A program made the position numbers and the translations under genes. The notes under the pieces were generated by a model. That model had not been told where the DNA came from, ran no database searches, and saw only the letters and a list, made by a program, of their open reading frames with translations. Of a DNA stretch of 50,066 bases, positions 6,937 through 9,152 are shown one piece after another. This DNA is from Escherichia phage EF3-1, in sequence record PQ571291, one strand, 5' to 3'. The first letter of the stretch is position 1. The number at the start of each line of letters is the position of its first letter.

Positions 6937-6961
6937 AGCCCGCCTTGCGCGGGTTTTTTTG
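6937..6961 (+). terminator. rho-independent terminator (CCCGC-CTTGC-GCGGG + T7)
   Basis: Hairpin sequence identical to the one at 9118-9132; preceded by motif-like AATAGCACTTCATGACAAAAGC (6918-6939). Confidence 0.7.
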
Positions 6962-6973
6962 TAGCTGTAGAAT
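6945..6973 (+). promoter_or_regulatory. sigma70-like promoter overlapping terminator hairpin (TTGCGC-17-TAGAAT)
   Basis: -35-like TTGCGC lies in hairpin 3' arm; 17-bp spacer; TAGAAT at 6968-6973; ATG of next gene at 7002. Confidence 0.5.
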
Positions 6974-7001
6974 GGTTGCAACTAAACAAGAGGAAAAGAC
7001 A

Positions 7002-7784
7002 ATGAGCGAAAACAAAAAACTTTATGATGAAGAAAGCGGGAAGAGCCTGTTTCACAACTGCCTTCAATCACTATACCCTGGAGAGATAATCACTCTGATT
7101 GAAGTTGATGGCAGCAAGTTCGGCGCTCAGGTGTACCGTTTCCACGGGGAAAATATCCAGTACACTCCAGAAGAAATCATGCAGGCACAGCAAACCGGAA
7201 CGCTACCGCCGAAAGAAATCACCTTCCGTGGAGAGCAATACGGCGCGCGACCTTTCGGTATATCCGGGATCTCGTTCGACAGTTCCGGCAAGGCCACAAA
7301 GCCACAATTAACGGTGGCAAACATCGATAGTCGCGTATCTGCGATGATTCGTGCATATAACGGACTAATGCAAGCTAAGGTGACTATTTGGATCACTCAA
7401 AAGGACTTAATTCAACCTAACGGCTCAATCGCTGACGGAGCTTACCGTAAACTGGTATACTATATCGAGCGTCCGAACTATGTTGATAAAAGCATTGCTC
7501 GGTTCGATCTCACTTCACCTTACGATATGGACGGCATCATGATCCCGTCTCGACTAACGCAAAGCGTATGCTATTGGGCGCAAAGAGGTTGGTATAAAAC
7601 CGGGAAAGGCTGCGGATACAACGGGCAAAATGGTTACTTCGATAAAGACAATAATCCGGTAGACGATCCTTCGCTGGATTTTTGCCCGGGAACGGTAACG
7701 GCCTGCCGCCTGAGATTCGGCGCAAACAATGAATTGGATTTTGGCGGTTGCGCAGTCGCTTCACTACAGAGGAAAAATCAATGA
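7002..7784 (+). CDS. minor tail protein (lambda L-like) with C-terminal Cys cluster
   Basis: ATG at 7002 (M20 of track ORF) with SD AGAGGAAAAG; C-terminal CGYNG...CPGTVTAC...GGC cysteine cluster as in lambda gpL. Confidence 0.75.
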   Translation: MSENKKLYDEESGKSLFHNCLQSLYPGEIITLIEVDGSKFGAQVYRFHGENIQYTPEEIMQAQQTGTLPPKEITFRGEQYGARPFGISGISFDSSGKATKPQLTVANIDSRVSAMIRAYNGLMQAKVTIWITQKDLIQPNGSIADGAYRKLVYYIERPNYVDKSIARFDLTSPYDMDGIMIPSRLTQSVCYWAQRGWYKTGKGCGYNGQNGYFDKDNNPVDDPSLDFCPGTVTACRLRFGANNELDFGGCAVASLQRKNQ

Positions 7785-8515
7785 TTAGTGCAAAAATTAA
7801 ACTTGAAATTATGACTCACGCTCAAGAAGAATATCCTCGCGAATGCTGTGGGGTAGTCACCCAAAAGGGCCGCGTACAAAAATACCATCGCGTTGATAAT
7901 GTACACCGCGATCCTGAAAATCACTTCATGATGGACGCAGTGCAATACGCATGTATTGAGGACGACGCAGACTCAACCACTATTGCGATCGTTCACAGCC
8001 ACACAGGAGATGGGGCTACAACGCTACCAAGCGCTCACGATACGTGCATGTGCAACGAGATGGAAGTTACCTGGATTATTGTTAGCGTGCCGGAAGGAGA
8101 TATGCGATTTGTGAAGCCGGAGAAATTACCTCTGATTGGTCGTCCGTGGGCATTAGGATCATTCGACTGTTACGGTCTTGTTATGGCGTGGCATAAAGAG
8201 CATGGCGTAGAGTTGCGCGATCGCCGATTGAATTTTGAATGGTGGAAGCCAGAGCATGGAATCAATCTCTATCAGGACTATTATAAGCAAGATGGATTCG
8301 TTGAGATTCCAGATCAGAATCAGCCTTCGTTTGGTGATATGGTAATCATGCAAATAGGGCAAAATGTTCCGGTATGGAATCACGCAGGGATTTACTTGGG
8401 TGATAATCAGATCTTGCATCATGCCTTCGGTAAGCTGTCGCGACGTGATATTTATTCAGGCTGGTATCAGGATCATACTGTTTTAATTGTTCGCCATAAG
8501 GATCTTAAATTATGA
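7781..8515 (+). CDS. tail assembly protein (lambda K-like; JAMM-like + NlpC/P60-like motifs)
   Basis: ATGA overlap with upstream stop; HSHTGDGATTLPSAHD (JAMM-like) and DCYGLV...H (Cys/His of NlpC/P60 type). Confidence 0.8.
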   Translation: MISAKIKLEIMTHAQEEYPRECCGVVTQKGRVQKYHRVDNVHRDPENHFMMDAVQYACIEDDADSTTIAIVHSHTGDGATTLPSAHDTCMCNEMEVTWIIVSVPEGDMRFVKPEKLPLIGRPWALGSFDCYGLVMAWHKEHGVELRDRRLNFEWWKPEHGINLYQDYYKQDGFVEIPDQNQPSFGDMVIMQIGQNVPVWNHAGIYLGDNQILHHAFGKLSRRDIYSGWYQDHTVLIVRHKDLKL

Positions 8516-9111
8516 ATGATGTAAAGGTAATTAAATTGTCAGGTTCACTTGGGAGACGCTTCGGCGTCTTTCACCGTTACGCTGTTGACTCTTACCCGGA
8601 AGCTATCCGGGCGCTATCCAGTCAGGTAGATGGATTTAAGGAATACATGCAAAGTGAGGTCGGATCACGTAGCAAGTTCGCAATATTTGTGGATGGCGTT
8701 AACGTGGGCCACCATGAAGAGGAAAAATTCAAATGCGCTAAAGAGATAAGAATCGTACCGATCCCGACTGGCTCTAAGTCCGGCGGTTTATTCCAGGTTG
8801 TACTGGGTGCGGCAATAATGGTTGCAGCATTCTATACTGGCGGCGCGTCTCTGGCTTTAATGGGCACAATGTCCTCGTCTCTGTTTATGATGGGCGGCGC
8901 TATGGTGCTGGGTGGCGTAATGCAGATGATTTCACCGCAGCCTGGTGGCGCAAATTTTGAGGTTCAGTCCAGTAAAAATAAACCTTCGTACGCATTCGGC
9001 GGTGCTGTCAATACGACGGCGGCGGGATACCCTCTCCCGGTCCCGTATGGATATCGCGCCGGAGGTGGCGCAACTTTCTCAGCAGGTTCTTATGCCGAGG
9101 ATATGAGTTAA
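8512..9111 (+). CDS. tail assembly protein (lambda I-like)
   Basis: ATGA-coupled to K-like gene; Gly-rich hydrophobic C-terminal half. Confidence 0.7.
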   Translation: MNDVKVIKLSGSLGRRFGVFHRYAVDSYPEAIRALSSQVDGFKEYMQSEVGSRSKFAIFVDGVNVGHHEEEKFKCAKEIRIVPIPTGSKSGGLFQVVLGAAIMVAAFYTGGASLALMGTMSSSLFMMGGAMVLGGVMQMISPQPGGANFEVQSSKNKPSYAFGGAVNTTAAGYPLPVPYGYRAGGGATFSAGSYAEDMS

Positions 9112-9115
9112 GATT

Positions 9116-9140
9116 AACCCGCCTTGCGCGGGTTTTTTTT
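9116..9140 (+). terminator. rho-independent terminator (CCCGC-CTTGC-GCGGG + T8)
   Basis: Same hairpin as 6939-6953, followed by T8. Confidence 0.7.
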
Positions 9141-9152
9141 CGCCTGTATAAT
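9124..9152 (+). promoter_or_regulatory. sigma70-like promoter overlapping terminator (TTGCGC-17-TATAAT)
   Basis: Perfect TATAAT at 9147-9152, TG immediately upstream, 17-bp spacer to TTGCGC; motif half-site AAATAGCAC at 9165-9173 in leader. Confidence 0.55.

Follow-up and report, generated by a model that had tools for sequence, protein, structure and literature searches.

Escherichia phage EF3-1 (sequence record PQ571291), represented here by a stretch of 50,066 nucleotides (nt) that we call the window, carries several related intergenic hairpins, each followed by a T-run or its degenerate remnant and, at a fixed distance, by a hexamer resembling the -10 element of a sigma-70 promoter. The question raised by these short modules is whether the phage uses one segment of DNA both to end the transcript of one gene block and to begin that of the next. 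The 4 kb around the sites shares 95% identity with the T1-like coliphages IME18, JMPW2 and SH2 and 92.6% with T1, and by this comparison the window phage is a T1-like coliphage of the Drexlerviridae. Neighbouring genes were named by homology to the annotated T1 record; three modules fall at the V-G, M-L and I-J junctions of the tail genes, and a fourth, divergent member is found upstream of terS. We consider it probable that the modules are dual-coded, each combining an intrinsic terminator with a sigma-70 promoter of weak to moderate strength. The terminator half we regard as very likely, and the promoter half is argued from its conservation.

A preliminary description of this DNA had reported one identical hairpin, CCCGCCTTGCGCGGG, with its T-run at 6939-6960 and 9118-9140, and a variant, CCCGCTTCGGCGGG, at 42393-42406 with T7 at 42407-42413. 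Direct reading confirms these coordinates and also the fixed distance that had been claimed for the hexamers TAGAAT, TATAAT and TAATAT, the first base of which lies 14 nt past the stem at all three sites. All sites had been assigned to the tail operon, which is correct for the two identical copies, at M-L and I-J; the third is located between the gene for a small membrane protein and terS, where the early and late regions meet. Absent from that description was the copy at 2916-2952, after the major tail gene. The modules and their elements lie on the plus strand unless stated otherwise.

The M-L terminator (6939-6960), situated after the M-like gene, has an A-tract directly 5' of its hairpin (6939-6953), T7 at 6954-6960 and a predicted fold of -13.7 kcal/mol. 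The -35-like TTGCGC at 6945-6950 is separated by 17 base pairs (bp) from the -10 hexamer TAGAAT (6968-6973), with a predicted start at ~6980 ahead of the L-like gene at 7002; in relatives this hexamer is TATAAT or TACAAT, in many cases with a canonical TGn extension. The I-J terminator (9118-9140), after the I-like gene, comprises the hairpin at 9118-9132 and T8 at 9133-9140, folds at -12.9 kcal/mol (z = -3.3) and was also found by a terminator scan; here TTGCGC (9124-9129) stands 17 bp from TATAAT (9147-9152), giving a predicted start at ~9159, and the J-like gene begins at 9189. At V-G, the hairpin (2916-2935, -15.4 kcal/mol) is followed in this lineage by an interrupted U-tract (TTATTCATTTCTG), degenerate over 2934-2946, where other genera have a clean T-run. 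Its TTGCGC (2924-2929) is again 17 bp from a hexamer, TAAAAT (2947-2952), with a predicted start at ~2959 and a leader of ~60 nt before the G-like start at 3019; relatives have TAAAAT, TAGAAT, TAATAT, CATAAT, TACAAT or TATAAT in this position. The TTGCGC had been placed in the 3' arm of the hairpin alone, when in fact it is composed of the loop together with the first two bases of that arm.

Within the window, the exact 15-mer CCCGCCTTGCGCGGG occurs twice, against 0.67 occurrences expected even when 3 mismatches are allowed, and a repeat finder places the M-L, I-J and terS sites in a single 36-nt family (D9), the later copies being 86% and 72% identical to the first. The pattern TTGCGC-N17-TANNAT has 4 matches against 0.16 expected, a number reached in 0/100 shuffles; one match, at 19738, is without a hairpin and is probably due to chance. 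With GC stems of 5-8 pairs, folds of -11.8 to -15.4 kcal/mol and runs of T7-8 at 6954, 9133 and 42407, the sites have the form of intrinsic terminators, and the hexamers TAAAAT, TAGAAT and TATAAT, along with TAATAT or TAAAAT at the fourth site along the window, have that of sigma-70 -10 elements. A search of the whole window against Rfam returned no family at threshold, and therefore no known antitermination or leader RNA accounts for the sites.

The evidence that carries the promoter half is comparative. Scanning IMG/VR with the L protein yielded 80 loci (L identity 64-99%), from which the V-G, M-L and I-J junctions were extracted, giving 70 distinct junction sequences when the three are pooled. 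In almost every lineage the order is the same: stop codon, A-rich bases, GC hairpin, T-run, 6-9 variable bases and hexamer. Stems vary by lineage (CCCGC, CCCCGC, GCCGC, GCGCCC, GGCCCGC, GCCTGGGGGC and others), and pairing is kept in all distinct hairpins of the three junctions, with C-G to G-C swaps at several positions. The hexamers observed, TATAAT, TACAAT, TAGAAT, TAAAAT, TAATAT, TATGAT, CATAAT and GATAAT, follow the sigma-70 pattern, in which A2 and T6 are fixed and the middle positions are free to vary. When 20 diverse I-J junctions were aligned with MAFFT, with no anchoring on the hexamer, five of its six positions (TA.AAT) were invariant, the only other invariant intergenic columns being two bases of a 21-nt repeat, described below, and the G of the ribosome-binding site (RBS). 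The information content of the hexamer is 2.0, 2.0, 1.3, 2.0, 2.0 and 2.0 bits, compared with 0.1-0.9 in the flanking columns.

The putative -35 element recurs in most of these sequences. A TTG starting in the loop is present in 59/70 distinct junction sequences, and the spacer between the resulting hexamer (TTGnnn) and the -10 is 17 bp in 47 of these 59 and 16 bp in a further 6. By junction, the loop TTG is found in 28/29 distinct V-G sequences (22 with the 17-bp spacer), in 13/17 from M-L, where 17 bp is the commonest spacer, and in 18/24 from I-J, with an exact 17-bp spacer in 17 of the 18. Loops range from 3 to 7 nt (TTG, TTGC, CTTGC, CATTGT, CTTTGT, CTTTTGT, CGTTGC), and the distance from TTG to the hexamer remains constant because additional loop bases are always 5' of the TTG.

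For comparison, the terminator that precedes the tape-measure gene served as a control. It is conserved to an equal degree in these loci, but its loops are mostly TACG, TTCG or GTTT, the RBS is directly 3' of the T-run and the stem ends 19-24 nt from the ATG. The two halves of the module can also part company: the M-L junction of L047 and L052 has no hexamer and takes a compact form of terminator and RBS, and the I-J junction of L013 has lost the hairpin and retained the T-run and TATAAT. Terminator and hexamer are thus separately gained and lost, as expected for two overlapping signals. The architecture of the junctions is conserved under selection.

The terS site follows a modified plan. Its intrinsic terminator (42393-42413), which closes the rightward early region, folds at -11.8 kcal/mol (z = -4.0), and its loop among Tunavirus relatives is TTCG, TCCG or TACG, making the hexamer 17 bp upstream TTCGGC, TCCGGC or TACGGC. 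The claim that TTGCGC stands 17 bp from the -10 consequently holds for M-L and I-J and fails at this third site, where the window has TTCGGC. The -10-like TAATAT originally proposed (42421-42426) is weakly conserved, being CAATAT in most Tunavirus relatives and CAATTT in TLS, and was downgraded as a functional -10 in favour of the extended -10 sequence TGGTAAAAT at 42426-42434 (TG 42426-42427, hexamer 42429-42434; predicted start ~42441). This sequence is invariant in the Tunavirus relatives examined, L094 having TGCTAAAAT. In TLS the hairpin at this site is CCCGCCTTGCGCGGG, and a consensus TATAAT lies 9 nt beyond CAATTT, in the place equivalent to TGGTAAAAT; the more distant L096 and L098 have TTGCGG, 17 bp and TGTTATAAT. 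The conserved -10 is probably therefore TGGTAAAAT, which overlaps TAATAT and lies 8 nt further downstream, and the terS junction would consist of a terminator followed by a predicted promoter throughout the family, of extended -10 type in the window lineage. The composite of terminator and promoter advanced in the preliminary description thus has strong comparative support at M-L and I-J, and also at V-G, and needs amending at the third site, with its unconserved loop hexamer and relocated -10.

The ~20-kb virion-gene (late) region contains ~10 terminators, which were classified by reading the 110 nt 3' of each. Those at 253, 589, 3652, 44616, 48308 and 49162 have a T-run and then, immediately, an RBS and ATG; those at 2916, 6939, 9118 and 42393 have a -10-like hexamer next, followed by a leader of 20-60 nt, and it is these 4, at V-G, M-L, I-J and upstream of terS, that have a candidate restart promoter.

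Each module would carry two signals in ~35 bp. At the RNA level, and for a polymerase arriving from upstream, it would act as a canonical terminator with a GC stem of 5-8 bp, a loop of 4-5 nt and U7-8, stopping part of the incoming transcription and leaving a hairpin-capped 3' end. As duplex DNA, it would be read by the E. coli sigma-70 holoenzyme as a promoter, in which the loop TTG would serve as a minimal -35, the 3' arm, T-run and 6-7 more bases as the 17-bp spacer, and the near-consensus TAnnnT as the -10. Transcripts begun here would not themselves be stopped, because their predicted start, ~7 nt past the hexamer, is beyond the hairpin and U-tract and they would not contain the terminator. 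Terminators with and without restart promoters could together set unequal mRNA levels of adjacent gene blocks, and we infer a stoichiometric purpose of this kind, with the major tail protein abundant, the tape measure scarce, and supply restored for L-K-I and for J.

Several observations weigh against this interpretation. The -35 elements at 2924, 6945 and 9124 match TTGACA only in TTG (3/6), and a generic promoter scan of the window did not report the modules, a result which neither supports nor refutes them but which we count on this side; they were missed because the -35 scores below 4 of 6. The minimal pattern TTG-N20-TAnnnT is not enriched genome-wide (28 found, 32 expected); promoter likeness by itself was therefore dropped as an argument, and the case rests on co-location with terminators and on conservation across the family. 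The -35-in-loop geometry fails at the terS site in Tunavirus and TLS, the loop TTG is missing from Webervirus-type I-J junctions (loop ATA or GTA), and the M-L junctions of L031 and L034 have TCG. Conservation of the TTG may partly represent inheritance rather than selection, because loops at the control junction are also conserved by descent. The V-G T-run is degenerate in the window lineage, constitutive sigma-70 promoters before late genes do not account for the timing of their expression, and transcript 5' or 3' end data for any phage of the Drexlerviridae were not found in the literature searched.

The terminators themselves are not new. Hairpins are already annotated at the same junctions in T1 (22793-22816, 24972-24994, 18770-18796 and 8322-8344; AY216660, NC_005833) and in Table S1 for TLS, as T46 (M-L), T49 (I-J), T42 (V-G) and T28 (terS) (PMC11447400). 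The annotations of T1, TLS and SA32RD place no promoter downstream of these terminators. Roberts et al. 2004, as quoted in PMC11447400, proposed that the T1 late region consists of terminator-flanked 'transcriptons' with RpoD promoters; in TLS only three sigma-70 promoters were found, under a rule allowing 2 mismatches, and the transcriptons could not be confirmed (PMC11447400). In those parts of the T1-like literature that we examined, the 2004 T1 paper aside, there is no mention of the -35-in-loop geometry or of its conservation across the family. The terminators were known from T1 and TLS; the promoters at them, absent from the annotations, are proposed here on comparative grounds. The conserved hexamers and loop TTGs point to specific candidates that escape standard rules, since no more than two mismatches are tolerated there, and they supply precise candidate start and stop positions inside the virion-gene cluster of a classic T phage family. 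They also suggest, in concrete terms, a way in which expression could be graded over a 20-kb late region by a phage that has no lambda-Q-type antiterminator. If the proposal is true, each module would be a natural part compact enough to insulate transcription and restart it in the space of 35 bp.

The closest known system is the promoter-early stem-loop (PeSL) of T4-like phages, for which lacZ fusions demonstrated both promoter and terminator activity (Arbiol et al. 2010, PMC2839356; also Comeau et al. 2014, PMC4122927, on PeSLs). PeSLs are likewise short intergenic cassettes repeated in one genome, combining a sigma-70-type promoter with an overlapping stem-loop that terminates or attenuates upstream transcription (as is predicted here), with an RBS and start codon next. 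The window modules share the overlap of promoter and stem-loop in a cassette ending in RBS and ATG, and are present in several related copies (the three of family D9 and that at 2916). PeSLs differ in having near-consensus -35 and -10 elements, a stem-loop between them or over the -10 and an AT-rich upstream region, and they flank ORFans in hyperplastic early regions and are linked to mini-circle formation. In the window modules a TTG is all there is of the putative -35; it lies in the loop of a canonical terminator whose U-tract is full, and copies are located at syntenic junctions of a conserved virion-gene operon in a siphovirus family, in all 80 loci, rather than in hyperplastic or ORFan regions. 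Because of this difference in location, we regard the modules as PeSL-like in their working but not as members of the PeSL family.

Some modules also include a 21-nt direct repeat (DR), aaATAGCACnnnTTGnTAAAA, described for TLS, T1 and Rtp, the function of which is listed as an open question (German, Misra, Kropinski and co-workers 2024, PMC11447400). Its core, GTGCTATT, occurs 19 times in the window against 1.6 expected. A copy in the I-J module, AAATAGCACAAAAAGGTAAAC (9165-9185), corresponds to DR8 of TLS, spans ~+6 to +26 of the predicted transcript, includes the J RBS and is conserved across most genera. The terS module contains AAATAGCACTAAATGTTAAAC (42431-42451; family D8), which overlaps the predicted start and is conserved in Tunavirus relatives. 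Both are 3' of the -10 and match aaATAGCACnnnTTGnTAAAA with TTG replaced by AAG or ATG. At V-G, an inverted copy is present in the leader (2979-2999), as part of an antisense cassette on the minus strand (2954-2996) that consists of TAGCACTTTTTGTTA, 22 nt and TAAGAT with TG one base upstream. The antisense TAAGAT directly abuts the sense -10 (2947-2952), and the two predicted promoters would exclude one another because they are face to face with abutting -10 elements; in alignment, the antisense TGnTAnnnT is retained wherever a lineage has the inverted DR and is missing where the repeat is absent. The DR is nonetheless an element separate from the modules: it is placed inside two of them and, inverted, beside V-G, but lies outside the terminator-promoter core, elsewhere occurs 22 nt upstream of a -10, and has no conserved copy at M-L. 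A partial DR-like sequence there, AATAGCACTTCATGACAAAAG (6917-6937), overlaps the M-like stop codon and is lineage-specific; many close relatives have GTAACGCCATATAACAAAAG in its place. It was rejected as part of the module because it is not conserved even among these, and is probably not functional.

These positions bear on an alternative that we regard as unlikely, namely that the -10 elements are real but that the promoters need a phage late activator, or are held off early by a protein binding the DR, with the loop TTG incidental. Late genes need temporal control in some form; the -35 is weak, and is missing at the terS site and at Webervirus I-J; the DR copies at I-J, kept across genera, and at terS, across the predicted start, are placed as a repressor site might be; and occupancy at V-G would be mutually exclusive. 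Set against this, the M-L module has no conserved repeat, and the regularity of the loop TTG and of its 17-bp spacing exceeds what an incidental feature would show. No DNA-binding regulator is recognisable among 20 early proteins, a Pfam scan of which, for a factor that might bind the DR, yielded only domains of unknown function (DUFs), a PNKP-type phosphatase and weak hits. The -10 elements, moreover, are near consensus, with a canonical TGn in many relatives, and extended -10 promoters can work without an activator. The alternative is partly compatible with dual coding, and, to judge from where the repeats lie, a factor binding them could gate some of the module promoters.

A second variation, which we think distinctly unlikely, makes the overlap itself functional: a polymerase that has just terminated would be recaptured on the DNA and restart, a fixed loss at each step would set stoichiometry, and I-J and terS would be gated by a DR-binding protein. 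With the -35 in the loop and the -10 only 12-14 bp past the point of RNA release, recapture could occur without the polymerase leaving the DNA, and one long late transcript would become a chain of discrete hairpin-capped mRNAs. E. coli RNA polymerase often stays on the DNA after intrinsic termination, diffuses and restarts nearby, as reported in two studies of such recycling (PMC6978380, Kang et al. 2020; PMC10372574, Harden et al. 2023). A true coupling of stop and restart is physically plausible by this analogy, although recycling was demonstrated on model templates.

A reading to which we attach little probability holds that the sites are terminators only, and that TAnnnT acts at the RNA level in read-through transcripts, for instance as a site for RNase E or other processing or as an A/U-rich translation enhancer. 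The hexamer does lie in A/U-rich intergenic RNA between a stable hairpin and an RBS, and others have annotated nothing but terminators at these positions. Yet its pattern of conservation, in which T1, A2 and T6 are fixed and C or G is tolerated at position 3, fits a sigma-70 -10 and not a generic A/U-rich site, many relatives have TG exactly one base upstream, and a 17-bp distance from TTG would be meaningless in RNA. The junctions that have no hexamer are also without the additional 25-35 nt of leader.

Similarly improbable as a full account is that the near-identical copies are recombination linkers, or mobile regulatory cassettes resembling PeSLs, and that transcriptional tuning is secondary. 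In this lineage 22 bases are identical between the two tail-tip copies, yet in other genera the copies differ from each other, and the Tunavirus M-L spacer (GTAGCTGTA; TTTTTTGTAGCTGTA) is the same as that found at I-J in lineage L039. Breakpoints of mosaicism fall at modules: compared with the window, L009 is 83% identical in V and 100% in G, and L013 is 99% identical in I and 68% in J; PeSLs mediate such exchange in T4-like phages (PMC2839356). However, the modules occupy fixed syntenic positions in a conserved operon and not the surroundings of ORFans, breakpoints of mosaicism are frequent at gene boundaries anyway, and base-by-base conservation of the -10 and -35 is left unexplained. This view is compatible with dual coding rather than exclusive of it. 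Outside the window lineage, the M-L hairpin of other genera is GCCGCC..GCGGC and the I-J hairpin CCCGCC..GCGGG.

Finally, that these are ordinary terminators with an AT-rich, -10-like sequence after them by chance, as the expected genome-wide frequency of TTG-N20-TAnnnT might allow, has a negligible probability and is effectively refuted by the comparative data, given four co-located instances in one genome, a layout kept at three syntenic junctions through 70 distinct sequences, and a control terminator without it.

The genes around the modules have the following coordinates. The major tail protein V (V-like) ends with a stop codon at 2902-2904 (plus strand) and is followed by the chaperone G/GT (G-like, 3019-3653), the tape measure (3693-6566), the M-like tail-tip gene (6569-6922), the L-like gene (7002-7784), K (ending at 8515), the I-like tail assembly gene (8512-9111) and the J-like gene (9189-12641); terS starts at 42467. 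Positions 1-141 and 49926-50066 of the window are identical over 141 nt (repeat-finder family D5), which shows the window to be a single, circularly permuted genome of 49,925 bp with this overlap added.

Elsewhere in the genome, the DR forms the upstream half of a cassette of ~75 nt, comprising TAGCACnnnTTGnTA, exactly 22 nt, a -10-like nAnnnT (often with canonical TGn), ..CCTCATCGAAACGAGA.., an RBS and ATG. There are 17 cassette cores in the window against 0.03 expected, with the hexamer exactly 22 nt downstream in 14/17; examples in 18411-40617 and elsewhere are at 34983-35025, 37328-37370 and 40603-40645 on the plus strand, and at 29578-29620, 31209-31251 and 32090-32132 on the minus strand. 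The 22-nt spacer usually contains a GC hairpin, or hairpin arms flank the -10, and the core is palindromic (TAGCA-N5-TGCTA) with its centre at ~-42, as in a class II activator site. DR cassettes are also present in L102/L104 (phage A134) and L103/L105 (phage KLPN6), and the 21-22 nt spacing of DR to hexamer is found in 13/13 cases in a Tempevirinae genome and 14/15 in a Webervirus genome. The T1 annotation has no promoters at DR cassette sites, and the cassette layout bears on the question of repeat function posed in PMC11447400. We rejected the I-J and terS copies as upstream elements of a second promoter, since they, unlike almost all others, have no -10 located 21-22 nt downstream. At 18409-18491, two opposed DR copies (ATAGCAC from 18410 on the plus strand and from 18450 on the minus strand) adjoin a minus-strand terminator at 18491-18474, beyond which are promoter-like sequences, TTGACC, 16 bp and CACAAT, and TTGCAA, 17 bp and TAAAAT with TG, in a non-overlapping order of terminator then promoter.

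Other combinations of promoter and terminator were observed. The elements stand in the opposite order ahead of the major capsid gene (49133-49187): a good promoter (TTGACG, 16 bp, TGCTATTAT), with its -10 contributed by an inverted DR copy, is followed immediately by a terminator hairpin at 49162-49187, both elements being annotated in T1 and SA32RD. The predicted start, ~49167, is inside the 5' arm of the hairpin; transcripts from upstream would meet the full terminator, and those from the promoter itself would carry a truncated 5' hairpin, which might stabilise them. A terminator at 25744-25770 precedes TTGTGT, 17 bp and TAAAAT (25778-25806), ahead of open reading frames starting near 25778-26056, with the -35 after the T-run and not in the loop. 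Lastly, 19 records labelled 'Campylobacter phage' (MG065663.1, MG065680.1 and others) match the Drexlerviridae tail region of the window; MG065663.1 (A134) is marked UNVERIFIED and classified in the Tempevirinae, and the 'Campylobacter' host labels look doubtful.

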